Positions 1,072-45,715 of a DNA stretch of 64,000 bases are shown here, piece by piece. Location: contig CAYGFH010000006.1 of NCBI GenBank assembly GCA_964349125.1, positions 11,121-75,120 of the forward strand, read 5' to 3'. The first letter of the stretch is position 1; every line of letters starts with the position of its first letter. The position numbers and the translations under genes are program-made. Source of the DNA: an uncultured Gammaproteobacteria bacterium. GTDB lineage: Bacteria > Patescibacteriota > Microgenomatia > UBA10105 > UBA927. The notes under the pieces were generated by a model. It saw only the letters and a program-made list of their open reading frames with translations. It did not search any database and was not told the DNA's origin.

Positions 1072-4026
1072 TTATTTTAATATGTTTTTAAGGAATTGTC
1101 CTGTCGAGGAATTAGCAATTTTAGCGATATCCACCGGTGTTCCCGTAGCAATAACTCTCCCACCGCCATCTCCACCCTCCGGTCCCATATCTATGATCCA
1201 ATCAGCATTTTTGATGATATCGAGATTGTGTTCGATCACCACAACTGTGTTTCCCAACACAGTGAGTTTATGGAGGACATGAAGCAGTTTTTCCAAGTCA
1301 GCAAAATGAAGTCCCGTCGTTGGTTCATCAAGTATGTACATGGTATGTCCGGTTTGACGTCTGTGTAATTCAGTAGCAAGTTTCACACGCTGGGCTTCGC
1401 CTCCCGAAAGTGTTGTTGCCGGTTGTCCCAGATGCATATAGGATAATCCGACTTCTTTTATAACCGCTAATTTCTCTGACAAGAGCGGATGATGGCTAAA
1501 AAATGACACCGCTTCCTCGACGGTCATGTTGAGCACCTGGGCAATGTTTTTATCCCTATAGAGTACTTCAAGTGTTTCCGCATTATACCTGGATCCATGA
1601 CACACTTCGCATGTCACATACACATCGGACAAAAACTGCATCTCAATTTTTCGCTGTCCTTCCCCTTCGCACGCTTCGCACCGTCCGCCTTTGACGTTAA
1701 ATGAAAATCGTCCTGATTTATACCCCCGTGTGCGAGCTTCTGATGTCAGGGCGAACAAATCCCGGATCTGGGAAAATATACCGGTATAGGTGGCAGGATT
1801 GCTGCGGGGTGTTCTGCCTATAGGAGATTGATCTATAAGGATCGTCTTATCTATCTTTTCTGTGTTTTCAATGGAGTCATGAGCTCCAGGTCGTTCTTTC
1901 ACCAATGGATTAACCTTTTGTGCCAGAGCGCGGTAAAATGTCTCTACTATCAGCGTGGACTTCCCTGAACCGGATACTCCGGTGATACAGATAAATTTTC
2001 CGAGCGGGAATGTGACATCAATATGCTTCAGATTGTTTTCGCTGGCTCCGCGCAGTATTACGCTCCCTTTGTCCTCATCCTGTTTTACAGTGACTGAAGG
2101 ACGGTTTATCTTCTTTTTTTCCGTAATGTACGGACCGGTAATTGAGTGCTTGTTTGCCAACACTTCAGCGAGTGTTCCCTGGGCGATAATATTGCCGCCG
2201 TGCTCACCTGCGCCAGGACCAAAATCGACCAGATAATCAGATTCTTCCATCATCTCTTTATCATGCTCAACAACGATCACTGAGTTACCCAAATCTCGCA
2301 GTGCATGCAATGTTTTGATCAATTTCGTATTATCTCTCGGATGAAGCCCAATTGATGGCTCATCAAGCACGTACAGCACTCCTGACAATCCGGATCCTAT
2401 TTGAGATGCCAGCCGTATGCGCTGCGCTTCCCCTCCTGCCAGTGTTGCGGCGCTGCGGCCGAGTGAGAGATATTCAAGACCGACGCGCTCTAAAAATGTA
2501 AGCCGTGAGATAATTTCTTTTATAATCGGTTTTGACACCTGCTGTTCCTGAAAATTTGTAAGTGCACGATCTCCGGACTCCAGACTTTTCACCCAGACAA
2601 TGGCATCTGAGATAGACAGATCGGTGACATCAGCAATAGAGAACTTGTCTATCGTAACGGTAAGCGTATCCTTTTTCAGCCGTTTTCCATTGCAGGAGGG
2701 ACATGTCTCGCGGCGCATGTACTTCTCTATCTCGCCTCGCACGAACTCAGATTCAGTCTCAGATAATCGCTTTTTGAGTTCAGGAACAATGCCGATAAAT
2801 TGCTCTTCAATGGTGGTTTTTGCCCCGAACCGGTTTGTTCCTTCAACCCTATACTGTTTATCCCCTGTGCCATACAAAAGCACTTTCTTTTGTGCCTCGG
2901 TCATCTTATTGAGTGGTGCTCTCGGATTAATGCCATGATCTTCGGCAACCTTCATAACGACACGGGAGTACCAGGTGTCGTGCATGAATGTTCTGGCAAA
3001 TGGCAATATACCACCCTCAGTCATGGATAATTCTGGAGAGATAATAAGCTGTGCATCCACAGTGAGTACGGTACCGATACCACTACATTCCTCGCACGCA
3101 CCATGCGGAGAGTTAAACGAGAAAGAGCGTGGTTCAATTTCAGGAAGTGAGATATTACACACGGGACAGGCAAATTTTTCCGAAAATATGTGCTCGGATA
3201 ACTCTTTTGGTTTTTCTGGGAATACAAATCCCGCATCATTGACGACAACTCCTGTGACCAATCCATCCGACAGTGTCAGAGCCTGCTCAACGCTGTCGGC
3301 AACACGGGATCGCAGTTGGGTATACGGATCAGATGTCTCGGCTTTTCCGGTAAGTTTTTTCAGTTGCAATGCGTCTATGGTAAACCTGTCGATCACGGCA
3401 TCGACTGTGTGTTTATTTGTTTTAATAAGACCGATATCTTCATTTATGCCAAAAAAGTATCCGTCTACGCGTACCTGCCTATAGCCCTTTGTCCTAATAT
3501 TATCAAACAAATGTACAAACTCTCCTTTACGGTCTCTCACAATCGGAGACAGGATAAGCATCCGTACCATCTTTTTTCCGGAAGACAGTTCTGCTCGAGC
3601 CAATTCGAGTAATTGGTCTACTATCTGCTGCGGGGAGAGTCTGCTGACTTCACGTCCACAGATTGAACAATGAGGATGACCTACCCGAGCAAATAATAAC
3701 CTGAGATAATCATAGATTTCTGTAACTGTACCGACTGTCGATCTGGGGTTGTGTGATGTGGATTTCTGATCAATGGAAATACTGGGAGACAGCCCTTCGA
3801 TACTGTCCACATCTGGTTTATCCATAATGCCCAAAAATTGGCGCGCATACGAGGAAAGGGATTCGACATATCTTCGTTGTCCCTCAGCATATATCGTGTC
3901 AAATGCGAGAGATGATTTTCCGGAACCTGACACACCGGTAAATACCACCAGCTTATTTTTCGGCAATTCAAGCGAAATATTCTTCAGATTATGTTGTCTG
4001 GCACCTTTGATGATTAATGTATCCAT
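1072..4026 (-). CDS. uvrA: excinuclease ABC subunit A (UvrA)
   Basis: 984 aa. N-terminal [53 protein letters not shown] is the UvrA signature. It has two ABC ATPase modules (second Walker [11 protein letters not shown]) and zinc-finger cysteines (CPVC, CEAC). Confidence 0.95.
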
Positions 4027-4082
4027 AATAAACGCGAAAAACGCCCTCGGATGGTCCCGGGGCCATGGACATTATACCATGG

Positions 4083-6092
4083 CTATTTTGTAATCTTTGC
4101 AATATAGTCACGAATCTGTGCTGCAAGTTCGAAATCCAAATCTCGTCCTGCAGTCTTCATTTCACGGGTAAGAGTCTCAACAAATTTCTTCTTGTCTGAT
4201 GGCGTCATGCCATCGACGTGCTCCTGGTCGATTCCCAAGAGGTCAGAAACACGCGTTTCCTGCACCACTTCCCCCGGGTCGTGGTCAGTAAGCCTGTCAC
4301 GAATCGGTTTTTGAATGCTCGTAGGGGTAATACCATGTTTTGCGTTGTATGCAAGCTGAAATTCTCTCCGCCTTGTCACCTCAGCTATGGCGAATTTTAT
4401 GGAGTCAGTTTGCCGATCCGCATATAAAATAACTTTTCCCTCCTGATGCCTGGCAGCCCGACCCATGGTTTGTACCAAACTGGTGCGACTTCGTAAAAAT
4501 CCTTCTTTATCCGCATCGAGAATCGCGACAAGAGACACCTCAGGCAGATCCAAGCCTTCACGAAGTAGGTTGACTCCAACCACAACATCGTACATACCAC
4601 GCCTGAGATCGGCGAGTCTCTCCGTCCGCTCGAGTGTTTCTACATCTGAATGGAGGTACTGCACTTTGATGCTGTGCCCCATCAGATAGTCTGTCAGATC
4701 TTCCGCCATCTGTTTGGTCAATGTAGTCACGAGCACCCGCTCATGACGCGCGACACGAAGTTCAATTTCTTTATATAAATCGTCGATTTGCCCTTTGATC
4801 GGACGCACATCGACGAGAGGGTCTACCAATCCTGTGGGCCGAACAAGTTGTTCCACGACTTTACCCCGAGACAACTCGTAGTCGGCCGGTGTTGCAGATA
4901 CATAAATCGTCTGAGGCTGGACGCGCTCGAATTCTTCACTGCGCATGGGGCGGTTATCCAGTGCACTTGGGAGCCTGAATCCGTAATCAATAAGTGTTTG
5001 TTTACGGCTCCTGTCTCCGTTATACATACCGCGAATCTGCGGAACACTCATATGGGATTCATCAATTACCATGAGCCAATTGTCACCGGATGCGGCTTTA
5101 AAGTAATCCATCAGGGTAAATGGCGGATCTCCTGGTTTTCTGCCATCAAAATACCGTGAATAATTTTCGATGCCGTTTACATATCCCATTTCCTGGATCA
5201 TTTCCAAATCATATGTGACACGCTGTTGTATTCTCTGTGCCTCGATAAGTTTGTTTTGCTTTTTGAATTTTTTCACCTGGAGATCACGGTCTTTTTCTAT
5301 TTCTTGAAATACTTCCTTGTGTTCTTTGGGATCAGTCATGAAGTGCTTTGCAGGGTAAATAACAGTACCGGGCATTTCCGAGATAGTCTTTCCGGTTAAT
5401 GGGTCAATCTCAGAAAGTTCACGCACCAGGGTCCCCTCCATAACGATGCGGATAGAGGTATCTTTGTACGCTGGGAAGACGTCTATACTGTCACCACGCA
5501 CACGGAATGTACTGCGATGAAACCCGAAATCATTGCGCTCATACTGCATTTGGATAAGTCTCGCAAAAATACTCTCGCGGGAAAGATGCATACCGGTTTT
5601 AAGCTCCAATACGAAATTTCCGTATTCTTTGGGTGATCCGATGTTATATATACACGAAACGGAGGCAACGACAATCGTGTCACTTCGCGTCAGAATATTT
5701 GTGGTAGCGGCTAATCGCAATTTATCTATTTCATCATTTATCTGTGTTTCCTTTTCTATAAATGTATCGGTATGAGGGATATACGCTTCCGGCTGGTAAT
5801 AATCGTAGTAGGAAACGTAGTATGATACCGCATTGTTTGGAAAAAAATCACGAAATTCCTGATAGAGTTGTGCTGCGAGTGTCTTATTGTGGGAGATAAT
5901 GAGTGTTGGCCTCTGGATCTTTTGGATCACATTGGCGATTGTGTATGTCTTACCGCTTCCCGTCACACCCAACAGCACCTGCTCGTGCTCTCCTTTTTCG
6001 AGGTTAGAGCATAGAGCACTGATGGCCTCCGGCTGGTCACCCGTCGGTTTAAAATCGGCTTTGAGTTCAAAAGGATGAGTTGTATGTGTCAT
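4083..6092 (-). CDS. uvrB: excinuclease ABC subunit B (UvrB)
   Basis: 669 aa. It carries the helicase Walker A GVTGSGKT, the UvrB-typical [14 protein letters not shown] segment, and a C-terminal UvrA/UvrC-interaction coiled coil. It sits immediately upstream of uvrA on the same strand, so it is probably a uvrBA operon. Confidence 0.95.
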
Positions 6093-6124
6093 AGGAATAT
6101 AGCCTATTTTTATCTTACCTGTTC

Positions 6125-6190
6125 ATTCGGTTTTTATCAAATTTGAACGGTTTATATCTAGTTTGATCGGATTGACTGTTCGGTTTATAT
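6125..6190. promoter_or_regulatory. triple direct repeat (T/A)(T/A)CGGTTT(T)ATAT in the lexA / uvrBA divergent intergenic region; candidate operator
   Basis: Copies at 6125-6137 (ttcggtttttatc), 6146-6158 (aacggtttatatc) and 6178-6190 (ttcggtttatatt). An additional inverted repeat CGGGT-N6-ACCCG lies at 6223-6238, next to the lexA RBS GGAGG (6247-6251). The region lies between the divergent starts of uvrB (6092) and lexA (6257). Confidence 0.35.
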
Positions 6191-6256
6191 TTGCGATAGT
6201 ACAAATAATCATATCATAGTTTCGGGTAATATCACCCGTATATTTGGAGGATCACT

Positions 6257-6880
6257 ATGCCAGCAGTAGTCTATAATAAAGAGCGCCAGATACTTGAGTT
6301 TATCACACAATTTGTGCAGCGTTATGGCTACGCACCTACCCTCAAGGAAATAGGCGGAGCTTTGGGCATGCACTCTGTGGCAACCGTCCATGAACATCTT
6401 GATCGCCTCAGGATAAAAGGGTTTATCAAAAAGCTGGATGGCACCGCACGCGGTATAGAAGTAGTCACAGAAAAATTCAAATCCGGTAACAGTGGTACCT
6501 CAATAGAACTGCCTGTTCTGGGTTTTATTGCTGCTGGGTCTCCACTTGAGCCGTACACGGATCCCAATTTTTATATGTCTGTAGCCCCCGGCATGATTTC
6601 ATCAAATAAACCCAGCTATATTTTGCAGGTAAAGGGTACCTCCATGATCGATGATGGTATATTTGACGGTGACTTTGTCATAATCCAACACCAACAGGAC
6701 GCACAAAACGGGGACATTGTTGTTGCACTCTTGCCGAACGGACTCGCGACCCTGAAGAGAATTTATTTTGAAAAGGAGCGAATCAAGCTCATGCCCGCAA
6801 ACGCCACAATGTCACCGATTTTTACCACGCATGTGAAAATCCAGGGCAAATGTGTCGGTCTAATCCGCAAGTTCGTCTAA
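6257..6880 (+). CDS. lexA: LexA repressor (S24 peptidase family)
   Basis: 207 aa. It has an N-terminal winged-HTH (YAPTLKEIGGALGMHSVATVHEHLDRL) and a C-terminal S24 autoprotease domain (GTSMIDDGIFDGDFVII...DIVVAL). The RBS GGAGG is 6 nt upstream. It is divergent from uvrB. Confidence 0.85.
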   Translation: MPAVVYNKERQILEFITQFVQRYGYAPTLKEIGGALGMHSVATVHEHLDRLRIKGFIKKLDGTARGIEVVTEKFKSGNSGTSIELPVLGFIAAGSPLEPYTDPNFYMSVAPGMISSNKPSYILQVKGTSMIDDGIFDGDFVIIQHQQDAQNGDIVVALLPNGLATLKRIYFEKERIKLMPANATMSPIFTTHVKIQGKCVGLIRKFV

Positions 6881-6908: not shown

Positions 6909-7637
6909 ATGAGGAAACTCTCTCTTGTCGCTACACCTATCGGGAACTTAGAAGACATCACAATTCGCGCTATAAAAACGCTATTTTCCGCAGACAGTAT
7001 CCTGTGTGAGGACACCCGGCGTGGGGGATTTCTGCTCCATGAACTGAATTCCAGGTATGGAGAACTCTTTGACCAGAATCCGAATTGGAAACCGTCGTTT
7101 ATCCCCTACTACGACGAAATTGAAGAAAAGAAACTTCCGGAACTAATCGGAATGCTGCAAGAGGGAAAGCATCTGGCTTTGATTAGTGATGCAGGAACAC
7201 CACTCATCAGTGATCCGGGGTATAGGCTGGTGCGTGAGTGTATGAAGCGCGATATTTTAGTGGAGAGTATACCGGGGGCATCTGCTGTAATGGCTGCGCT
7301 GACCTCGTCAGGGCTCCCAACATCATCGTTTCAATTTTTCGGGTATCCGCATGAAAAACAGGCTAAACGCATTAAACATTTTGAATCCTTGTTTCAATGT
7401 TTTAAAACATCAGAACACCCTGCGACAAATATTTATTATGTCGCTCCGCATAAATTACTTCAGACTCTCGAAGATATCAGGACTGTGTTTGGAGATATAG
7501 ACATTGTGTTGGCACGCGAACTTACCAAAGTGCATGAGCAGGTTTGGAAAGGTAACTCCTCAAAAGCGATTTCCGAATTTGCAGACCCGAAGGGTGAGTT
7601 CGTGCTACTGTTCGCGCTCGGGAAACCCAAAGAGTAA
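6909..7637 (+). CDS. rsmI: 16S rRNA (cytidine1402-2'-O)-methyltransferase RsmI (tetrapyrrole methylase fold)
   Basis: 242 aa. It begins MRKLSLVATPIGNLEDITIRAIKTLFSADSILCEDTRR, typical of RsmI/YraL. Confidence 0.85.
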   Translation: MRKLSLVATPIGNLEDITIRAIKTLFSADSILCEDTRRGGFLLHELNSRYGELFDQNPNWKPSFIPYYDEIEEKKLPELIGMLQEGKHLALISDAGTPLISDPGYRLVRECMKRDILVESIPGASAVMAALTSSGLPTSSFQFFGYPHEKQAKRIKHFESLFQCFKTSEHPATNIYYVAPHKLLQTLEDIRTVFGDIDIVLARELTKVHEQVWKGNSSKAISEFADPKGEFVLLFALGKPKE

Positions 7638-10671: not shown

Positions 10672-11943
10672 TTATACTTTTGGAAAAAGCTCTGATTCTA
10701 TTTGGAGTAACCTGTTGTACTTACCTACCCGTTCTCCCCGTGCAGGCGCGCCAAATTTGACATAATCTGATTGTACGGCAACAGCCAAATCGGATATAAA
10801 CGTATCGTTCGTCTCTCCGCTTCTATGTGACACGATGCATTTGATATCATTTTTCTTTGCAATATCAACGACAGCCAAAAATTCGGAGAGTGAACCGATC
10901 TGATTCGGTTTTAGTAATACTGCACTGCACGCCTTTTTCTCGATCGCTTTTTTTAGACGTGCCGGGTTGGTGGTGAGTAAATCATCCCCGATAATCAGGA
11001 GTTCTCCGCCAAATTCACGGTTCAACTCTACCCACCCATCCCAATCATCCTCTCCGAGAGGATCTTCAAGAGTCAACAACCTGTATAATTTATGCATATC
11101 GGCTATGTATTTTATAAAGTCCGAAGTCCTGTATGGTACCGGACGGTCTTTAATTTGATACCCACGCTCACTTCTAAATGAGGATGCGGCAATATCTAAA
11201 CCAAAAAATATATCAACGCCAAACCTGTAGATACTCGAGCGGATCGTCTCTGTGAGAAGCTCCAATGGATCCATGTTTGTCGATAAGTTCGGTGCATATC
11301 CGCCTTCATCACCCGTAGAGTGCGCAGCTCCTCGTTTGATCAATTGTTGCTTGACCGCGTGGTATACCTCTACACCCATCTGAAGCGCATCACTGAACGA
11401 TTTACTGGTAGCCGGAACTATATGATATTCCTGGAAATCTAAATTACCGCCACCATGTTTGCCACCGTTTATAACGTTAAATGTGGGTGTCGGAATTCTA
11501 TTCATTGGGATCACGGTGCTCGCACTGGCAAGTTGATTCAGATATTTATACAGTGGCACTCGGGTATGTGCAGCCGCTGCAACTGCAACTGCCAGAGAAA
11601 CACCCAGAATGCTGTTTGCGCCGAGTGATGCTTTGTTTGGGGTACCATCCAAATCTACCATAGCCTTATCAATTGCACCTTGGTTTAAAGCGTCCATACC
11701 CTTAATTTTGGGATTGATGATGGTGTTTACATTTGAGACAGCTTTGAGCACCCCTTTGCCATCATAGCGTTTTGTATCATGGTCGCGCAGCTCAACAGCT
11801 TCATACGTGCCAACAGAAGCCCCGGATGGGACGGCAGCTATGCCACGATACCCGCTGTTTAAGATAACCTGTACCTCTACTGTCGGGTTACCCCGGGAAT
11901 CGAGTATCTCCCGCGCTATTGCACTATATATTTTTGAATCCAT
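10672..11943 (-). CDS. eno: enolase (phosphopyruvate hydratase)
   Basis: 423 aa. The N-terminus MDSKIYSAIAREILDSRGNPTVEVQV and a C-terminal enolase signature region (VSHRSGETNDTFISDLAVA) are present. Confidence 0.95.
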   Translation of the reverse strand: MDSKIYSAIAREILDSRGNPTVEVQVILNSGYRGIAAVPSGASVGTYEAVELRDHDTKRYDGKGVLKAVSNVNTIINPKIKGMDALNQGAIDKAMVDLDGTPNKASLGANSILGVSLAVAVAAAAHTRVPLYKYLNQLASASTVIPMNRIPTPTFNVINGGKHGGGNLDFQEYHIVPATSKSFSDALQMGVEVYHAVKQQLIKRGAAHSTGDEGGYAPNLSTNMDPLELLTETIRSSIYRFGVDIFFGLDIAASSFRSERGYQIKDRPVPYRTSDFIKYIADMHKLYRLLTLEDPLGEDDWDGWVELNREFGGELLIIGDDLLTTNPARLKKAIEKKACSAVLLKPNQIGSLSEFLAVVDIAKKNDIKCIVSHRSGETNDTFISDLAVAVQSDYVKFGAPARGERVGKYNRLLQIESELFPKV

Positions 11944-17975: not shown

Positions 17976-19739
17976 TTATCTAAATTTCCACACCGATCCG
18001 AGTGTATCAGTATACACCAGCGGATACTGTTTCGTTAAGGCATTCGAATCACAAGGCCGAATATTTGGTATGGCAGAGTCTGAATAACATACGATATACG
18101 CAATGGAAGTTTCCTGTATACCGGCAGTACCTGAAAGCACTGCCTTCTGCACAACAAGAGCCGGGTCAGGGCTACCACCATATGTATATATATATTGCGT
18201 CCTGCCAGTATACGTCTTTATGCCTGCGATATTTATCGGATCGTATATTTCCCCATTCGTCAACACAATATCTCCGGGTTTCATATGTTCAGAGACTGCC
18301 TTCAGGAGTGGATGGTGTGCATAATCTACTATCCTGGCGAATACATCATTTTTTAACACAAAAAAATTTATAATACCTGAGATACACAAGAAAAAAATTA
18401 ACACATATGCCAGCATAGTCCGCCATACATACTTAAGCACAAACAATACGCAAAATGTCATGCATAACTTCCAGAGTATGAAAAACTTGTGATCATCAAA
18501 TACATTGCGAACACTGATATGAAAGACATTAGGAAGCGTAAAAAGGAGAAGCGAATATAACGCAAGCCATCTGAATTTTTTCCCGGAGTATAGGATCCCG
18601 AGTACAGAGATTGGTATCAGTAATCCCGTATTTCTGAACCAGAATGTAAACCATGATAGTACTGTAAGAGGGACTACAATAAAGCCTGGTGCAAATAGTA
18701 TTCCGCTTTGTGAATGCATGAGAATTTCTAATACCTTTGGGGCAGACACACCAATCGCCAGCAATAGTGTGGGAACACTGAGGCGTCGTGAAAGCACGAC
18801 GAGCAAACAGGCCGCTAGAAATACATGCACATGCCAGTAACAGAGAAACCCCAACACGATTCCATCAAATATTCTTCGACTTTTTGGAGTATACAAGCTG
18901 TACTTGAGATGCTCCGGTATAAACCAGAGAAATGCAGCGATCCCGAAGAGCAACTGTCGTTGATTCAGATACGTATTTAGATTCCAAAAAACCTCAAAAG
19001 AATCCGAATACCTATTCGTGTGATAGAGTGCAGAAAACCAACTGGCCGGATTGACATGTTCAGTTACAAACTGAAACCAAAGTAACGTTTGATCGGAAAA
19101 AAATATAATAACTCCGACACATGCAAATACCCAAGACCGCTTAATCGTATACGCGAACATATACACTGATGTGCCGATGCTCGCAAATGCAAGCGCGCTA
19201 ATGAGATTAAGTGCCAGGTCGATCCTCAAACCTAAATATTCCAACAACCCTGCGTAGAAATGAGTCAAAAAGTAATAAGACCCACCTGATTGTGAAAAAA
19301 ACGGTATAGTAGCTGGATAATTATTCCCGAGAGAGAATGATCGAATAAATGGAATATGAGCTCCGAAATCCATATACGTATTGGACGATACTAACAGGCT
19401 ATTCGAGGTCGTGTCGTATGAGAATGAGTGGGCAAATATATACCAGCCAAACATCGCCATCGCCAGGTATACTGTGACTTCTCTACTCGAAAGATGGATC
19501 GGCCATCTCTGTCGGGTTGCTATCTGATACCCGTATATGAAACTTAGAACTACCATATAACACAACAGCGACACGGCAAGATCATGAGTGATATACGACG
19601 TCAGTATAAAGAGAGGAGTAAGTGATAGAATCGAACCAAGTATATAGAAATACCCCAGTCCATTTCGAACTTTGCCTAATAATCCAAGTATTAGCACACC
19701 ATTGAAGCAAACACTCACCAAAAAAAGTAGCGCAAGCAT
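17976..19739 (-). CDS. polytopic integral membrane protein, possible GT-C fold glycosyltransferase
   Basis: 587 aa. The N-terminal ~460 aa are extremely hydrophobic with more than 10 predicted TM segments, and there is a ~120-aa C-terminal soluble domain. This is the ArnT/PMT-like architecture. There is no specific motif I can verify. Confidence 0.4.
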
Positions 19740-19743
19740 ACAA

Positions 19744-20925
19744 TTATGTCTTTGGCAATAAATATCGTCTCCCCTTCAATTTGTCAGGTAGTAAACTTTC
19801 GTTTGTGTACATCTCATATCCTTTGCCGTATTCCAAGTTTTTCATCAGTTTGGTCGGAGCATTTCGAATCATAAGTGGTATGGGGAGGTTTCCAAACTGC
19901 TTAACATCGGCAAGGGCCGCAAAATATGCATCATATGCACTTCTATCTTTCTTGGCGGTACACAGATACACAACCCCGTGCGCCAAACTGATTTGTGCTT
20001 CAGGATACCCGATTTTATTGCAGGCATCAAAGACCGCATTGGCGACCACCAGTGCCGTAGGCTGTGCAACACCAATGTCTTCAGAGGCAAAAATAACCAT
20101 GCGCCTCGCAATAAAGAGAGGATCCTCTCCCGCAGATGTCATACGCGCCAGATAGTAGAGGGCCGCATCAGTATTGCTTGCGCGCATTGATTTGATGAAA
20201 GCGCTAATTGTATTGTAGTGTTCCTCCCCCGACTGATCATACTGGAGCATTTTTCTCTGTGCTGCATCTTCCATGTGTTGAACTGTGATCGTGTTTTTTC
20301 CTGCAAATTGAGCGGCAATTTCCAAAATGTTATAGAGACTGCGTCCATCTCCATTGGCAGCCTCACGCAAAAATGCCTTTGCAGTGTCTTCTATCTTCAT
20401 ACCCAAATGCGATACGCCCCGATCAATAAGCAGATCCAACTCTTCATCAGTTAGTTGCTTGACCACTACTACACGGCAACGGGAAAGAAGTGGAGCTATG
20501 ACTTCAAATGACGGATTTTCCGTCGTGGCACCTATAAATATGACTGTCCCCTTTTCCACATGCGGCAGCAGGGCATCTTGCTGCGCCTTGGTAAATCTAT
20601 GTATCTCATCCAGAAAAAATACCGTTTTTTTTCCCTGCGCCAGTCGATTTTCTGATTCTTTGATAATACGGCGAACATCCGCGAGTGTCGACGTGACGGC
20701 ACTGTGTGATTCAAAATGCGCAGCGGTGATTGTCGCCACCAACTCAGCAAGCGTCGTTTTTCCCACACCCGGCGGCCCCCAAAAAATCATCGACGGCAAA
20801 AATCCCGTGGATAAAAATTTACGCAGTATGCCGTCTTTTCCGACCAGATGCGACTGCCCTATCACCTCATCGAGTGTTTTTGGACGTAGCTGTTGAGCAA
20901 GTGGTTTGAGAACAGGATTATACAT
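19744..20925 (-). CDS. rarA: replication-associated recombination protein A (RarA/MgsA AAA+ ATPase)
   Basis: 393 aa. It has the Walker A motif GPPGVGKTTLA, a Walker B FFLDEIHRF, and a C-terminal MgsA helical domain. Confidence 0.9.
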   Translation of the reverse strand: MYNPVLKPLAQQLRPKTLDEVIGQSHLVGKDGILRKFLSTGFLPSMIFWGPPGVGKTTLAELVATITAAHFESHSAVTSTLADVRRIIKESENRLAQGKKTVFFLDEIHRFTKAQQDALLPHVEKGTVIFIGATTENPSFEVIAPLLSRCRVVVVKQLTDEELDLLIDRGVSHLGMKIEDTAKAFLREAANGDGRSLYNILEIAAQFAGKNTITVQHMEDAAQRKMLQYDQSGEEHYNTISAFIKSMRASNTDAALYYLARMTSAGEDPLFIARRMVIFASEDIGVAQPTALVVANAVFDACNKIGYPEAQISLAHGVVYLCTAKKDRSAYDAYFAALADVKQFGNLPIPLMIRNAPTKLMKNLEYGKGYEMYTNESLLPDKLKGRRYLLPKT

Positions 20926-21556
20926 TTAAATCATAAAAATAATCATCGGTATTATGCTGTTGTTTTTGCACGTTTTTAATTCGCCTGATTCGTTTAAACG
21001 TTTGCTCAATCTCAGCTAATAGCATTTTATCTTCGGTTCCAAAGGGTCCAAAGTACACCTTGCCACCATGCTTTGTGATACGCAACAACTCATCAAGTGC
21101 ATACATGTGTTCTGTCCACCCATTACTGTAATACCAGCTTGCATAAATGTCGAATGTCGCATCAAACGATCCATTTTTAAACGGAAGCTCAGGGCTTAAG
21201 CCGGCCAGTAAATTTTTCTTGTATTCAATCGGTCCTTTTCTAAACGTGTACATAGAAAAGGCCGGATTTATACTGCATACACGAAGGTCGCGTCGAATGT
21301 CGTGAACTTCTCGTGCAAATGCGGCGTATACACATCCAACATCACATACTATGCCATTTTGGGGAATTGGGGAAAGCATTTCCTTCATCGACTCATATCC
21401 CATAAACTCGTTGCGTGGCGTTCCATCCTGTTGTATTTGCGGTATCCTCGCTAACAGTAACTTTTCACTCGCATACCCCTGACCCACTGGCAGTATCTCG
21501 CTCATGACGTAATTATATCCCATAATACTATTATTACAAAACATTAAATTCTTCAT
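20918..21556 (-). CDS. putative class I SAM-dependent methyltransferase
   Basis: 212 aa. The IVCDVGCVYAAF glycine-rich loop is consistent with methyltransferase motif I. It lies between dinB and rarA with 4-8 bp overlaps. Confidence 0.45.
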   Translation of the reverse strand: MKNLMFCNNSIMGYNYVMSEILPVGQGYASEKLLLARIPQIQQDGTPRNEFMGYESMKEMLSPIPQNGIVCDVGCVYAAFAREVHDIRRDLRVCSINPAFSMYTFRKGPIEYKKNLLAGLSPELPFKNGSFDATFDIYASWYYSNGWTEHMYALDELLRITKHGGKVYFGPFGTEDKMLLAEIEQTFKRIRRIKNVQKQQHNTDDYFYDLNV

Positions 21557-22860
21557 ATGCTCGCTTTTCCAAACGCGATCCTGTCCATGACTTTTTGACT
21601 GGAATCTATCATACGAGCAGGTACGATAGTATACTTCCCATATTTTTCCGATAACTGGTCAATAGTGCGTGTCACACATTCTTTTTTCACATCGTACTCC
21701 AAAAGTGATTGTTGCGTATACAAATCCCGTGTTAACTTGCCACACGTCACCCCCAGTATTCGAATGGGCAGGTCAGGTGCACTCAAAAGAAGAGACTTGC
21801 TGTATGAAAAAAAATCTGCGTCAGCGTACAGTGGTCCTGCCAATTGTTTTTGTGTATGCCAAAAATCAGAGTAACTACTATACATGGCCGAAACACCGAT
21901 GCTGTGAGCCATACATCCTGCGGCTCGAAGCCTGCTGCCCATTTTTACCACCAATTGAGACAACACCTGCCAAAGTTTGGGATCAGACGGAGGCAGTGCT
22001 CTGCCTAGCGCATGGGAATGCCCGAATGATTTTTGCTCAGAGGCACTCACACCCGCACCAAATGAGGTATACCGTGATCCATCTTCGTACCCGTGAAGGC
22101 GCATCCACCAGTGACGTCCGACTATAGAATGAAGGGCACGCTCCAGTGTCTTTGCATCAGACATGAGCAAGGACATTGGCGTATAAATACCACCAATCCG
22201 CAGACGTGTGGCAACTCCGGTTTTAATGCCGCAAAAATCCTCAAGCCGCATTGTAGAAAATGTTTTTGCAATCGTCTTCCCGGTGATCATATCCAGTCCG
22301 TCCGGCTTGTGGAGCCCTGAGGCGATTTTAGATAAATATCGATTGGGAGCAATCCCTATAGACACCGTGATCCACTCTCCTATTTCGCGGCGTATGCGTT
22401 GTTTTATCTCTCTGGCTATCAGGAGCATGGCATGTTCTGTCTTTTCATGCTCAGTTGCGTCCGGAGCAGACATGATTCGCATCTGGGTGTCCAATCGTGG
22501 CGTCTGTGCAAAATCCACAACCATTTCATCTATGGATTCCACACGTACGTTGCACGAATAGGATTCAAGGATTGCCAGAAGCGCACGGTTTATGTATCTG
22601 TATTTATTTGGATCAGGAGCAAGCACCTCGACAAATGGGCACCGTGCCTTCGCCTCACTCACCCGCATACCTGTGTCTATGCCTATTGCCTTGGCTTCCC
22701 GCGAAGCGGCGAGGATACACCCATGGTCTTCCGCATAGGCAGCAACAACCGTCGGTTTCCCACGCAGTCGTGGATTCGCCTGCTGTTCAATCGTCGCGAA
22801 ACAGGAATTGATATCAATATGCATGATGGTAGGAGGAGATGGATTAAAACATATATTCAT
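21553..22860 (-). CDS. dinB: Y-family DNA polymerase (DNA polymerase IV / DinB-ImpB-UmuC family)
   Basis: 435 aa. The N-terminal motif MHIDINSCFATIEQQANPRLRGKPTVV contains the catalytic aspartate, and a little-finger domain follows. The true start is probably the internal Met at about 22824 (MHIDI...). Confidence 0.9.
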   Translation of the reverse strand: MNICFNPSPPTIMHIDINSCFATIEQQANPRLRGKPTVVAAYAEDHGCILAASREAKAIGIDTGMRVSEAKARCPFVEVLAPDPNKYRYINRALLAILESYSCNVRVESIDEMVVDFAQTPRLDTQMRIMSAPDATEHEKTEHAMLLIAREIKQRIRREIGEWITVSIGIAPNRYLSKIASGLHKPDGLDMITGKTIAKTFSTMRLEDFCGIKTGVATRLRIGGIYTPMSLLMSDAKTLERALHSIVGRHWWMRLHGYEDGSRYTSFGAGVSASEQKSFGHSHALGRALPPSDPKLWQVLSQLVVKMGSRLRAAGCMAHSIGVSAMYSSYSDFWHTQKQLAGPLYADADFFSYSKSLLLSAPDLPIRILGVTCGKLTRDLYTQQSLLEYDVKKECVTRTIDQLSEKYGKYTIVPARMIDSSQKVMDRIAFGKASI

Positions 22861-22937
22861 GTCATTGCGAGCGATAGCGAAGCAATCTTATTTCATCGTA
22901 ACCGGATTGCCACGTCGCTTACGCTCCTCGCAATGAC
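22861..22937. repeat. ~77-bp imperfect palindromic element with perfect 11-bp terminal inverted repeats (GTCATTGCGAG / CTCGCAATGAC), abutting the dinB start
   Basis: Left arm 22861-22871, right arm 22927-22937. The inner arms are also partly complementary (AGCGAAGCAATC versus RC AGCGACGTGGCAATCC). Confidence 0.5.
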
Positions 22938-22946
22938 AACCAGCAT

Positions 22947-23195
22947 TTACCCATCAATTTCCAACAATTTCCACGAGAGTGTTTCTGTATTGAAACGCAA
23001 CTTAAACTGCATAGTGCCGTCGGTCACCTGGAACATATGAAGTAATACTCGCCCCTCACGGACGGTGTGATGGAGTCCGATTTTTATCATCATGTAGCGC
23101 ACTCCCCGCCAGTGTACCACCCACGGATAGGCCACTTTTTTCACATGATTAGACAATAAATCTACCGAAACTGATTCATCTATTGTTGTAACCAT
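22947..23195 (-). CDS. small hypothetical protein upstream of dinB (possible YolD-like polymerase accessory)
   Basis: 82 aa, co-directional with dinB and immediately 5' of it. The beta-rich C-terminus (IKIGLHHTVREGRVLLHMFQVTDGTMQFKLRF) could form a small barrel like YolD/UmuD'-type partners. This is position-based inference only. Confidence 0.3.
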   Translation of the reverse strand: MVTTIDESVSVDLLSNHVKKVAYPWVVHWRGVRYMMIKIGLHHTVREGRVLLHMFQVTDGTMQFKLRFNTETLSWKLLEIDG

Positions 23196-23412
23196 AATAT
23201 CTTTATATAAAAATTAACCCGAATGTATCTATTGCATTCAGTTTTGCATACCGACTCTGAAAAACAAATCTAAATTAGATAGATATATACTAAGAAAACG
23301 TATGTTTCATCGAAGTTTTCTCAGTGCATATGTATCATAAAATACCCGAATAAAATTATAATAGATCGAAAATAATACGAACAATATCAAATACTGTATA
23401 CTATTATTCCGT

Positions 23413-24120
23413 ATGAAGTCGAAGGCGCTGAAATTTTCCCTTATCATCCCTGTATACAATGAATCACGATATATAAGACCGTTATTAAGATCTATACGGG
23501 CATCGTCAGAACAGCCGTCAGAGATTATATTCTGTGACAATAATTCGACAGATGACACACGCATCCAAATTCAAAAGCACAAACACCGACTACCTATTTC
23601 AATACTCACAGAAAAACAAAAAGGCATCCTCCCAACAGTCGAACGGCTATGGAAACATGCCGCTAGAGATTTGATAGGTAAAATAGATGCGGATTGTATA
23701 CTTCCGAAACACTGGATCCGAAATGCAATACGACATTTTAACGGGTCGCCAAATCTGGATGCGTGTACCGGACCAATCGTGAGTTCTGATGGAAACATGT
23801 TTATACGAACAGCTGTTTCAGTGGGATATATTGTAGGAGTGCCTGTATTTTTCACACTAAAAGGAGATATGCCGGTCTATGGACCGAACGGAGTGTTTCG
23901 CAAAACAACGCTCAAAAAAATTCAGGGGTACGCATGGCATACCAATGATCTGGATGACCATATTATAAGCAGAAAATTGACACAACATCACTGTAAAGTT
24001 AGTTGGTACCCTGACATGTATATGTTTCACTCCACCCGTAGATTTCAGCAACGACCGATGGCTGCACTTGAAGCGGTTCTTTCCTTATTTCGCTCTGATT
24101 ACTATAATGAGAGACAATAA
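23413..24120 (+). CDS. glycosyltransferase family 2
   Basis: 235 aa. The N-terminus FSLIIPVYNESRYIRPLL...IIFCDNNSTDDT shows the GT-A DXD region. Confidence 0.8.
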   Translation: MKSKALKFSLIIPVYNESRYIRPLLRSIRASSEQPSEIIFCDNNSTDDTRIQIQKHKHRLPISILTEKQKGILPTVERLWKHAARDLIGKIDADCILPKHWIRNAIRHFNGSPNLDACTGPIVSSDGNMFIRTAVSVGYIVGVPVFFTLKGDMPVYGPNGVFRKTTLKKIQGYAWHTNDLDDHIISRKLTQHHCKVSWYPDMYMFHSTRRFQQRPMAALEAVLSLFRSDYYNERQ

Positions 24121-24121
24121 T

Positions 24122-24697
24122 ATGGCACAAAAGAAAAAATCAGGATATTTGGAAGTGATTGCTGGCCCCATGTACTGCGGAAAAACGGAAGAACTCATCC
24201 GCCAGGTAAAACGTGCAAGCATTGGGAAAAAGAAAGTACAAGTGTTTAAGCATGCTATAGATACCCGATACGGCAAGGACAAAAAGGTATATTCCCACGC
24301 TGGACTTAGCTTCAAATCGCACCTGATCACGGAAGCGTCTCAAATACTGAAGAAACTCCATAAAAACACCCAGATCGTCGCTATAGATGAGGCCCAGTGG
24401 TTTGGGCAGGACCTGATTCCGATAGTGAGTGAATTGGTGGAAAAAGGGCTGCGCGTTATGGTGGCAGGACTTGCCATGACGTATGACAGACAACCATTCG
24501 CCCCGATGCCAACGCTTATGGCAATGGCTGACAATGTGACCAAACTATCTGCAGTGTGCCAAATATGTGGGGATGATGCTGTGTTTCATAAAAGAATCGT
24601 AAAAGCAGCTGGAATCAACGCGCTGGATGCAGATCCTGCACTGGTCGGAAGATCAGATGCCTATGAAGCTCGATGCAGGCGGTGTTTTAGTAAATAA
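24122..24697 (+). CDS. tdk: thymidine kinase
   Basis: Start taken at the internal Met (MAQKKKSGYLEVIAGPMYCGKTEEL) rather than the track start at 24068, which overlaps the upstream GT2. It has the P-loop GPMYCGKT, VAIDEAQWF, and C-terminal zinc ribbon cysteines (CQICG...CRRC). Confidence 0.9.
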   Translation: MAQKKKSGYLEVIAGPMYCGKTEELIRQVKRASIGKKKVQVFKHAIDTRYGKDKKVYSHAGLSFKSHLITEASQILKKLHKNTQIVAIDEAQWFGQDLIPIVSELVEKGLRVMVAGLAMTYDRQPFAPMPTLMAMADNVTKLSAVCQICGDDAVFHKRIVKAAGINALDADPALVGRSDAYEARCRRCFSK

Positions 24698-25051: not shown

Positions 25052-25125
25052 GCCCCCATCGTCTAGCGGCCTAGGACAACGGGTTTTCAGCCCGTGAATC
25101 GCCGGTTCGAATCCGGCTGGGGGTA
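25052..25125 (+). tRNA. tRNA-Glu (anticodon TTC)
   Basis: GCCCCCATCGTCTAGCGGCCTAGGACAACGGGTTTTCAGCCCGTGAATCGCCGGTTCGAATCCGGCTGGGGGTA folds as a cloverleaf. The acceptor is GCCCCCA/TGGGGGT (G1-U72), the anticodon stem is ACGGG/CCCGT with loop TTTTCAG (anticodon TTC), and the T arm is GCCGG-TTCGAAT-CCGGC. It closely resembles bacterial tRNA-Glu. CCA is not encoded. Confidence 0.9.
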
Positions 25126-25993: not shown

Positions 25994-26324
25994 ATTTCTA
26001 TGATTATACCAGAAATAGGCTTATAGTTTATATATTAATCACGACAAGAACGATGAGTAAACATATATTTTTTACATTTTCCAACGATTACAATCGTATA
26101 TTTGAATTTGGTAAGATTGGGGCACAAACAAGAAAGTGACACTTATCGGCGAAATTGACAATCCCAAAAAATAGTCAGATCAGAGCTTACGGGCGCTTAT
26201 AGATACCGCACTGAATTGCCTAGTGCTTCGCTTCTCCGAATTTGGCGAATCGATATATGTATAACCACGCATACTTTGGTATGTAAACACCCGATTCGCG
26301 AGAACTGTCACGCGGAGGTATAGA

Positions 26325-26355
26325 TACAAAAAACCGGCGATGGCCGGAATTTTGT
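26325..26355 (-). terminator. intrinsic terminator (bidirectional-type hairpin) downstream of the YtxH-like gene
   Basis: AAAAAA-CCGGC-gatg-GCCGG-AATTTTGT: a GC stem flanked by an A-tract and a T-tract, 28 bp downstream of the 26383 stop on the minus strand. Confidence 0.6.
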
Positions 26356-26382
26356 ACTCACTCATATCCGTGAGATTGTATG

Positions 26383-26990: not shown

Positions 26991-27032
26991 CTCGTTTCTA
27001 TAGTTAAAAAATTTTGTTACTATGCCTCACTG

Positions 27033-27251
27033 TTATTTTTCCTGTGTCACATTTACGTCAATCTTTTCTGGGATTACAATCTTTGTTTCCGGTAGAGTAA
27101 TCTGCGCCGGACCTATTTGCCTTAGCATCGGCAAACCAAAAAATATAAAGACCATAACCATGCCAAGTAATAGGATGAATCCAATTAAAAAATTGGTTCC
27201 GACATGATCATTTTCCTGACTTGGATTGTTTACTACTGTTGTCATATGCAT
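27033..27251 (-). CDS. small single-TM membrane protein
   Basis: 72 aa with a central hydrophobic helix FLIGFILLLGMVMVFIFFGLPML. Confidence 0.35.
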   Translation of the reverse strand: MHMTTVVNNPSQENDHVGTNFLIGFILLLGMVMVFIFFGLPMLRQIGPAQITLPETKIVIPEKIDVNVTQEK

Positions 27252-27275
27252 TCACCTCCTTAATAGATGCTACTG

Positions 27276-27731
27276 TTACTGGTTATCGACGTTCTGCTCC
27301 ACTTCTCCCTGATTGGTGGGCTTCACAATCTGAAACAAAGAGACCATTCCGTATGCAACTACCGCATATACTCCCATGGCAATCAGTGTGGACCACTCAG
27401 CAACGGAACCGCCGGATACTGAAGTCCCCAGAATTCCCAGAAACGGCGTCGCAAACGGGCTACTTAGCGTATATATAAAATCGACAAAGCCACTATATGG
27501 ATTTGCACTTATAAGCTTGAGAACAATTCGAAATGCTAGCAATATTTCTATGACACCAAGTATGTACCAGATAATCTGGTATGTCCGAAATATCGCTTTT
27601 TTGGTCTCGTATTCTTTCTGCGGTGAACCTGTATCTACCTGCGGCGTCATCACCCGTGTCTTTCGTATAACCTGTGCGGGAGCCTCTGACGATACTGTCG
27701 TCACTTCCTGGACTTCGGTTTGTTGTGTCAT
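27276..27731 (-). CDS. YggT-family membrane protein with N-terminal soluble extension
   Basis: 151 aa. The C-terminal ~90 aa have two TM helices and a YGGT-like motif (RIVLKLISANPYSGFVDFIYTLSSPFATPFLGIL). Confidence 0.45.
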   Translation of the reverse strand: MTQQTEVQEVTTVSSEAPAQVIRKTRVMTPQVDTGSPQKEYETKKAIFRTYQIIWYILGVIEILLAFRIVLKLISANPYSGFVDFIYTLSSPFATPFLGILGTSVSGGSVAEWSTLIAMGVYAVVAYGMVSLFQIVKPTNQGEVEQNVDNQ

Positions 27732-30973: not shown

Positions 30974-31712
30974 ATATTGTGAGAATTATTTTTGTTATGT
31001 ATATGTTGTTATCGTCTCGCCATAACGCCGAAACACAAGATACCCACAGTATAAGTAATATATATATATTTGAAAAGAAGCTCCCACCCTATCACAGGGC
31101 GCGAACACTTCCTGTATGCCCTGTGAGGCATGCGCCCTTATCGAATAAATTACTAGTATTCTTGCAGAAAATTTCAGTTTACTTCATGAATTGCAAAGTC
31201 AAACATCAAAGCAATATAGTTATAAGGATAAAAACATCTACAGAATTAGTTCAAATTCTTTGCGAGGAAGATTACTGTTTTTTCCCAAGCATCTTTGATT
31301 TCTTTGGTGCGTAGTTTTCGCCAGACGGGTTTGCAAAGGCAGTTCCACTCCGTATCAAATATGAATATCATGTGTGACCCTCAGTGCGGTCAATGAAGCA
31401 TCAAATTCCTTTACTCTTTCATGAGTCATTACAACTTCAGAGTATTCTCAGGCTTTTTGAGGCATGACAAAATACCCGTTCGTCACAGGAAAGTAGGATA
31501 CATCATCGGTCTACTCAATCCGCGTCCGGAAGCCGGTGACCATGGCATCTATTTTTTCTGTATCTGAAATTTTGGTGCCATCGAGCTAAAAAGTAGGTAC
31601 ACCAGGTAATAAGGATACCGATCAAATACATAATGGGAGAAAATTTTGCAATCATAGTAATCCACTAGTGTGAAACATAGATCACAAAAGTCAAATCAGG
31701 AAGTAGACGTAT

Positions 31713-45298: not shown

Positions 45299-45715
45299 CT
45301 ATGCAATGATCGCGTCAGCGTGCAACTGATGTAGAAGCAACACAACAGCAGGGGCAGTCTCTGGCATAGCACGATACGACTCCAGAGTAACAAATTGTAC
45401 ATCCGCTATCTCCCCTGAAGCGCGGATAGATCCATCATACGATCCCATAAAGCAGTGGAGCTCCACAAACACACCTTCAGGCTCGCCATATGCCTGTGCC
45501 ACAAACACGCCATAGAGAGAGAGTGACGACTGGTCAAGTGAGATTGAGAGTTCCTCTGACAATTCGCGACATACCGCTTCTATATGGGACTCACCGGTCT
45601 CAATCTTTCCACCCGGCAGGTAAAACGCGCGCTTATTCCGGGACCGGACAAGCAGAAGTTTCGAATCTTTGATAATGCAAAAGGCTGCGGCGACGAACCG
45701 TTGAGTCTCTGGCAT
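45299..45715 (-). CDS. NUDIX hydrolase
   Basis: 138 aa. It has the Nudix box GGKIETGESHIEAVCRELSEELSI. Confidence 0.75.
   Translation of the reverse strand: MPETQRFVAAAFCIIKDSKLLLVRSRNKRAFYLPGGKIETGESHIEAVCRELSEELSISLDQSSLSLYGVFVAQAYGEPEGVFVELHCFMGSYDGSIRASGEIADVQFVTLESYRAMPETAPAVVLLLHQLHADAIIA

Follow-up and report, generated by a model that had tools for sequence, protein, structure and literature searches.

The TTCGG repeats between lexA and uvrB in the 64-kb window (the whole stretch of 64,000 nt that was analysed, from contig CAYGFH010000006.1) are very likely to be SOS boxes (LexA operators) of the Patescibacteria direct-repeat type, judging from comparison with related sequences. The initial annotation had lexA (+) and uvrB-uvrA (-) diverging from a region of 164 bp (6093-6256), which was borne out by the open reading frame (ORF) list and by Pfam. 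It had also suggested that a triple direct repeat in this region could be the LexA operator of the lineage, a proposal that is now supported by the related sequences. Three sites, designated a, b and c, were located, all in lexA orientation. Their conserved unit is TTCGG(G/T)T followed by a T-rich tail, which forms the first half of a TTCG-N7-TT(C/T)G direct repeat with an 11-bp period. Directly observed were the position of the motif, its conservation, its strand bias and 11-bp periodicity, its occurrence at SOS-type genes, and the intactness of lexA.

Translation and alignment of the window LexA revealed a winged helix-turn-helix, a cleavage site at Ala-Gly within FIAAGSP and a catalytic Ser/Lys dyad, with Ser in GTSM and Lys in LKR; judged by these features, the protein is a canonical cleavable repressor. 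The closest LexA relatives (64-98% identity) were from Candidatus Gottesmanbacteria and other Patescibacteria genome bins, and the more distant ones (42-56%) were from Levy-, Uhr-, Nomura-, Berkel- and Saccharibacteria and some Acidobacteriota. Based on these identities, the window was assigned to a bacterium of the candidate phyla radiation (CPR), within the Gottesmanbacteria clade.

The upstream regions of 51 orthologous lexA genes from this clade were then compared, with motifs counted in the 200 nt upstream of lexA. The plus strand had 122 occurrences of TTCGG and the minus strand 3, where approximately 12 were expected per strand; for TTCGG[GT]T, there were 92 and 1, respectively, where 2 were expected. 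Each locus exhibited two to four copies of TTCGG(G/T)T with the T-rich tail, in lexA orientation throughout. Motif discovery on the orthologous regions by de novo expectation-maximization (EM), with the window excluded, recovered the TTCGG motif as ATTGACAGTTCGGTTATT, which corresponds to the -35 hexamer plus the motif. According to the initial annotation, a LexA operator would be refuted if orthologous lexA promoters lacked the repeat; the opposite was seen, the motif being present in essentially all 51.

The layout of the sites was stereotyped in the orthologues, with site a beside the uvrB start codon, site b in the spacer of the lexA promoter and site c in the lexA leader. The spacer site was found in 51/51 orthologues, with the consensus TTGACAgTTCGGgTatttTTtGgAATACT. 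Sites a and b were 53-54 bp apart in 24 loci, with a wider distance of 64-66 bp in a further 5. Between b and c, 21 loci had 42 bp, 5 had 41-43 bp and 4 had 63-64 bp. These spacings are near whole helical turns and differ by about one or two turns between lineages. The flanking intergenic sequence had diverged considerably among the loci, the LexA proteins being 64-98% identical, while sites a, b and c were kept. Conserved spacings that shift by approximately whole turns would fit a possible, though doubtful, scheme in which LexA dimers sit on one face of the helix and cooperate or form a higher-order complex. To our knowledge, such a one-face cooperative mode has not been described for LexA with direct-repeat boxes.

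In the window, site b constitutes the entire 17-nt spacer of the lexA promoter (TTGACT-17-GATAGT), with a TG preceding the -10 hexamer according to the promoter scan. Autoregulation is a hallmark by which LexA boxes are identified and, because site b fills the promoter spacer in the window and in the 51 orthologues, it was taken to be the LexA autoregulatory box. The site has one mismatch to TTCG-N7-TTCG and, when read as GTTC-N7-ATTT, two mismatches to GTTC-N7-GTTC. With a transcription start approximately 7 nt past the -10 hexamer, the first position of site c would be about +14. On the minus strand, a candidate uvrB promoter (TTGATA at 6140-6135, 17 nt, TAAGAT at 6117-6112) has site a in its spacer.

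The same locations could be expected if the motif were a feature of the promoter or leader, such as a spacer or UP-like element, an RNA structure in the 5' untranslated region (UTR) or a translation signal. Site b is contained in the promoter spacer and adjoins the extended -10 TG, site c belongs to the transcribed leader and is near the start codon in many orthologues, and the CGGGT-N6-ACCCG hairpin together with T-rich sequence was flagged as terminator-like by the promoter scan. However, the motif was limited to two DNA-repair intergenic regions (of approximately 4.7 kb of intergenic sequence and 60 genes on a rough gene map) so that a feature common to promoters in general is ruled out. 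As site a is antisense relative to uvrB, one RNA element cannot account for both a and c. The 5' UTR folds were neither conserved nor more stable than shuffled sequences, with no conserved or unusually stable structure among the lexA leaders of 31 loci, and no Rfam match was obtained in 6050-6300 at E <= 1. The inverted repeat reported in the initial annotation is indeed present at 6223-6238, but it is incidental, the core of site c serving as its left arm and its right arm being unconserved. As a hairpin it was rejected, being missing in the closest relative (locus L001) and unconserved in other orthologues, with a window fold of dG -8.8 (folding free energy) and z -0.7. A promoter or leader feature is thus a very improbable explanation, and the operator reading is retained.

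The repeats were also counted across the window. The initial annotation had described three copies of WWCGGTTT(T)ATAT; three plus-strand copies were located, at 6126, 6146 and 6179, with offsets of 20 and 33 bp rather than 21 and 32 bp. The pattern WWCGGTTTWWAT gave 4 matches on both strands, compared to 0.25 expected, 3 of them in the lexA/uvrB region. For TTCGGKTWWWWT, exactly 5 matches were found compared to 0.39 expected, comprising 3 in the lexA/uvrB region and 2 upstream of a Y-family polymerase operon. The repeat is therefore real and far above chance. Within the triple set, the copies at 6126 and 6179 (sites a and b) were conserved and the middle copy at 6146, designated a', was not; a further copy, TTCGGGTAATAT at 6221-6232, had been overlooked. 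Copy a', like the copy at 6126, belongs to a 20-nt tandem duplication (6128-6147 / 6148-6167, 80% identity). Its counterpart was missing in most orthologues, and the corresponding position in L001 reads ACTGGTTTAGAT (ACTGG), i.e. it was not kept. From the sequence, copy a' is probably a weak or non-functional site, a degenerate duplicate specific to this lineage. This lineage-specific duplication, yielding an unconserved copy of only 0.3 bits, is what would be expected if AT-rich intergenic DNA had given rise to a functionless repeat by chance or through recent local duplication in tandem. Such an origin accounts for copy a' only: at sites a, b and c, the position, orientation and sequence are all maintained among the loci, and the motif counts far exceed the shuffled expectation, leaving chance or duplication as a hardly credible explanation for the set.

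Palindromic boxes were searched for in the same 164-bp region. The absence of the Cheo box and of the Escherichia coli box, as noted in the initial annotation, was confirmed in 6093-6256 with up to 2 mismatches, and no Verrucomicrobia-type palindromic box was found there even with 2 mismatches. A GTTCA/TGAAC pair is present at 6121-6148, its spacing being N18 and not the N19 first given.

To examine the half-site architecture, the distance from TTCG to a following TT[CT]G was profiled. A single sharp peak at a lag of 11 bp was present in three separate sequence sets (lag-11 anchors: 40/153 for Gottesmanbacteria lexA regions, 12/34 for other Patescibacteria lexA regions and 9/29 for polymerase-operon regions), and the element is therefore a direct repeat of 11-bp period. 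That the half-sites are in tandem and not inverted was evident from the 122-to-3 strand bias, the lack of a palindromic partner and the tandem TTCG...TTCG in relatives. A second half-site at this distance was seen in many sites, with TTCGGGTTAATTTCGG and TTCGGTTAATTTTCGT as examples from Gottesmanbacteria.

The lexA promoters of the Uhr-, Berkel-, Nomura-, Sacchari- and Levybacteria-like relatives revealed either GTTC-N7-GTTC or TTCG(G)-N6/7-TTCG(G), nearly all within or beside the lexA -35/-10. The sites were TTCGGGTATTATTCG, TTCGGGTTATGTTCG and GTTCGTGAATATTTCG for Levybacteria-like loci, GTTCTATTTTTGTTC and GTTCGGTTTTTGTTCGG for Uhrbacteria, TTCGTTTTTTGTTCG for Berkelbacteria, TTCGGTTTTCTTTCGG, TTCGGTTTTTTTTCGG and GTTCGGAGTGTGTTCGG for Saccharibacteria and TTCGTAATATTTTCG for Nomurabacteria. 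The literal GTTC-N7-GTTC was seen in Uhrbacteria-like relatives only. In the Gottesmanbacteria clade, the second half was TTTTG, TTTC or a T-rich stretch; as it is not GTTC, the box is a degenerate variant and not a literal member of the GTTC-N7-GTTC class. In the alignment, these Patescibacteria share the LexA recognition helix pattern S-x-(A/S)-T-(V/I)-H/Y-x-H. Outside the CPR, the nearest LexA relatives were from Acidobacteriota/Thermoanaerobaculia (L073, L078 and L079); these have a conserved CTTTCGCCTACTTACGCTTGACTTTCGCCCTATTACCGCC upstream of lexA that includes TTCG-N7-ACGC and TTCG-N7-ACCG around the -35, which hints, at the sequence level, at a related direct-repeat box in those Acidobacteriota.

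These data bear on whether the motif could instead be the operator of a different DNA-damage or stress regulator, with LexA binding elsewhere. Non-LexA control of damage regulons is known in some bacteria, no palindromic box of a known LexA type occurs in the region, and binding of LexA to the motif is deduced from sequence. The motif is, however, anchored in the promoter of lexA itself throughout the clade, and it follows the LexA phylogeny in gradual steps, from GTTC-N7-GTTC to TTCGG-N6-TTTTG. Its 11-bp direct-repeat architecture is the same as that of documented LexA boxes, and EM on the lexA upstream regions yielded only the TTCGG motif and promoter hexamers, with no alternative conserved repeat. 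Control by another regulator was accordingly considered unlikely, and LexA is favoured as the protein that would bind the motif.

Evidence from outside the lexA/uvrB region was obtained with a 17-nt matrix, built from 110 orthologous lexA-region sites with the window excluded and used for all bit scores given here. The two best matches in the window (19.9 and 18.1 bits) were not at lexA but upstream of its only translesion-polymerase operon, where three predicted boxes lie within an upstream region of 217 bp. Among the intergenic matches of at least 8 bits, 7/8 were at DNA-repair genes on the rough gene map. The operon is headed by a small ORF, followed by the Y-family polymerase. The methyltransferase and MgsA/RarA ORFs lie 3' of the polymerase and overlap or abut; they may be co-transcribed with it and hence belong to the putative SOS operon.

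The polymerase locus was also compared with its metagenomic relatives. Where relatives of 40-65% identity had the small ORF upstream of the polymerase, the motif preceded the small ORF, in gene orientation at all of these loci except L116 (minus strand) and frequently within the spacer of a TTGACT-type promoter. The full TTCG-N7-TTCG was seen at L087, L098, L111, L116 and L117. Distant polymerase relatives (approximately 33% identity) lacked the motif. Orthologues of the small ORF were found at L082-L085, L087, L088, L090, L091, L093, L098, L106, L111, L116 and L117; they are approximately 80 aa long, with the consensus ..NESVSV..W.GR.Y.I.K.GLHH..R.G..L.HIFSV....FKL.F.TE.L.W.LLE..DG. The window protein gave no significant Pfam or NCBIfam match, and DUF6504 was matched weakly by 5/14 orthologues (best E 0.0035). 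The protein may assist the translesion polymerase as an accessory factor. A glycosyltransferase and a thymidine kinase gene diverge from the operon, and the start codon of the glycosyltransferase is preceded, at a distance of 31-47 nt, by the box at 23366-23382 on the opposite strand. LexA could thus also influence this gene pair, which would link SOS control to nucleotide salvage.

Several further matrix matches were discarded. The sequence TTTCGCGTTTATTATGG at 4023-4039 (-), scoring 10.7 bits, lies at the 56-nt uvrB/uvrA junction and overlaps the uvrA start codon; it is probably a chance match, as no counterpart was found at that position in the orthologues. Matches of at least 12 bits at 10903, 18993, 40324 and 50964 are inside long ORFs, where approximately 3 were expected by chance. 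Three of these ORFs were assigned by Pfam (enolase, AcrB and PfkB), and that at 17976-19739 had no assignment. The match at 23154 coincides with the codons of the conserved ESVSV peptide of the small ORF, and matches downstream of lexA in L017 and L023 correspond to Phe/Gly-rich codons of a membrane-protein ORF that is DedA-like by eye.

Based on these findings, a mechanism can be proposed. Each operator would span approximately 15 bp, its first half-site, (G/T)TTCGG, being strong and its second, TT(C/T)G or T-rich and 11 bp downstream, degenerate. One LexA dimer would bind it in a head-to-tail arrangement, a mode already proposed for GTTC-N7-GTTC in Alphaproteobacteria. LexA on site b would exclude RNA polymerase from the lexA promoter, giving autoregulation, and LexA on site c (approximately +14 to +30) would further obstruct the leader, hindering promoter clearance. 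Occupancy of site a would cover the uvrB promoter or leader on the other strand, so that uvrBA would be repressed. The operon of the small ORF, Y-family polymerase and MgsA would be repressed likewise through its own boxes. Upon DNA damage, RecA filaments would induce self-cleavage of LexA at the Ala-Gly bond, and the three transcription units would be derepressed. A variant of this scheme, in which an effectively asymmetric LexA box has TTCGG(G/T)T as its single strong half-site, followed by a T-rich tail, and repression needs three co-oriented boxes across the divergent lexA/uvrB region, is possible but doubtful.

Several points weigh against the assignment of the motif to LexA, or against parts of the scheme. 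LexA binding, repression, the presence of one dimer per box and cooperation between boxes were deduced and not directly observed. In the window, the second half-site is weak in sites a (TCAA) and c (TCAC), and that of site b overlaps the extended -10 TG, so that part of its conservation could reflect promoter constraint. The placement of the uvrB promoter is unsure, the candidate matching 9/12 consensus positions with no clear common -35/-10 across the orthologues. The P-values overstate independence, since the orthologous loci are mutually related. The regulon was seen at two SOS-type loci only, recA, ruvAB and nrd being outside the window. Lastly, identity with the motif published for Patescibacteria in 2017 rests on the context in which that study is cited in PMC7739468.

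The motif can be placed among known LexA boxes. GTTC-N7-GTTC is the documented box of Alphaproteobacteria (Caulobacter, Rhodobacter and Sinorhizobium) and has also been reported for Acidobacterium capsulatum. The Gottesmanbacteria box resembles it in being a direct repeat of 11-bp period, in the overlapping half-site (G)TTC(G) and in its location at the lexA promoter and at repair genes, but differs in that the first half is extended and fixed as TTCGG(G/T)T and the second half has decayed, and in its CPR host. The LexA protein is approximately 45% identical to the nearest Acidobacteriota LexA proteins recovered. The LexA of Bacillus subtilis (DinR) is comparable in that lexA is autoregulated, uvrBA and a Y-family polymerase are under LexA and the GAAC/GTTC tetranucleotide is related; its Cheo box (CGAAC-N4-GTTCG), however, is a palindrome with a 4-bp spacer, whereas the Gottesmanbacteria half-sites are in tandem. 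The 2017 study of the Patescibacteria SOS response (Sanchez-Osuna, Barbe and Erill, Environ Microbiol 19:3465) is cited in PMC7739468 among the cases of LexA direct repeats; it shares with the present analysis the superphylum, the regulator, the comparative-genomics logic and, as cited there, the direct repeat. The Balneolaeota box TTACACATATTTTWTACATA, described in PMC7739468 as validated by electrophoretic mobility shift assay, is another instance of LexA on a direct repeat, with an unrelated half-site sequence and a different spacing. Since direct-repeat boxes are already known, the TTCGG motif is not a new kind of LexA box.

Table 1. Coordinates of the predicted operators, promoter elements and genes in the window.
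Feature	Sequence	Position	Strand	Remarks
uvrA		1072-4026	-	Downstream of uvrB; Pfam UvrA domains
uvrB		4083-6092	-	Pfam UvrB_inter/UvrB/UVR; ATG start codon at 6090-6092
Predicted operator site a	ATTCGGTTTTTATCAAA	6125-6141	+	14.9 bits; core TTCGG 6126-6130; near uvrB start
Copy a'	AACGGTTTATAT	6146-6157	+	AACGG; 0.3 bits; middle copy of the initial annotation
lexA promoter -35	TTGACT	6172-6177	+	Promoter scan; TTGACA conserved there in 51 orthologues
Predicted operator site b	GTTCGGTTTATATTTGC	6178-6194	+	16.9 bits; TTCG-N7-TTTG
lexA promoter -10	GATAGT	6195-6200	+	Promoter scan; AATACT in orthologues
Predicted operator site c	TTTCGGGTAATATCACC	6220-6236	+	10.0 bits; core TTCGG 6221-6225; lexA 5' leader
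Inverted repeat	CGGGT-N6-ACCCG	6223-6238	+	Incidental
lexA		6257-6880	+	207 aa; Pfam PF01726 (LexA_DNA_bind) and PF00717 (Peptidase_S24)
Putative LexA-controlled four-gene operon		19744-23195	-	
MgsA/RarA AAA+ protein		19744-20925	-	Pfam MgsA_C
Methyltransferase		20918-21556	-	Pfam Methyltransf_11
Y-family polymerase		21553-22860	-	Pfam IMS and IMS_C
DUF6504-like small ORF		22947-23195	-	82 aa; operon head
Predicted LexA box	ATTCGGGTTAATTTTTA	23208-23224	-	18.1 bits; fits TTCGGKTWWWWT; immediately 5' of small ORF
Predicted LexA box	ATTCGGGTATTTTATGA	23335-23351	-	19.9 bits, best in window; fits exact pattern TTCGGKTWWWWT
Predicted LexA box	GTTCGTATTATTTTCGA	23366-23382	-	10.2 bits; perfect TTCG-N7-TTCG
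Family-2 glycosyltransferase		23413-24120	+	Divergent from polymerase operon
Thymidine kinase		24068-24697	+	Divergent from polymerase operon

Some additional observations were made around lexA. In the close relatives L001 (approximately 2860-3000), L027 and L033, the lexA leader contains, 3' of the boxes, insertions of 100-140 nt that include strong inverted repeats. The fold of the L001 leader had a dG of -42.7 and a z of -2.4; L027 and L033 carry CCAGGTAGT...ACTACCTGG, with approximately 165 nt from the lexA promoter to the start codon. A small mobile element is one conceivable explanation for these insertions, and a structured leader is another. Directly 3' of lexA in the window is a TP_methylase (rsmI-like) gene (6909-7637); in L017, L018 and L023 (approximately 3630-4370), a gene for a DedA-family membrane protein is inserted between lexA and the TP_methylase gene, convergent to lexA. 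LexA proteins of 75-98% identity with the same uvrB-lexA synteny were found in many bins titled 'uncultured Gammaproteobacteria bacterium' (L001-L003, L006-L009 and others), and the 'Gammaproteobacteria' labels on these Gottesmanbacteria-like records look wrong. Elsewhere in the window, a tRNA gene at 25052-25125 (+) was the sole Rfam match at the gathering level, and ORF-poor stretches (no ORF of at least 75 aa; several of 300-400 bp) were noted at 1-359, 681-1071, 25994-26382, 26991-27375, 31315-31712 and 45403-45715.

No new regulatory principle is involved, as direct-repeat LexA boxes and a Patescibacteria SOS network have been described before. What appears specific to the Gottesmanbacteria clade is the degenerate second half-site and the conserved layout of three boxes. 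Within one superphylum, the direct-repeat LexA box would have drifted from GTTC-N7-GTTC to TTCGG with a degenerate second half. For this uncultured CPR lineage, the predicted operators provide an SOS box that can be scanned for and a first sketch of the regulon, comprising lexA, uvrBA and the operon of the DUF6504-like ORF, Y-family polymerase, methyltransferase and MgsA, which may be of use in annotating damage-inducible genes in metagenome-assembled CPR genomes.

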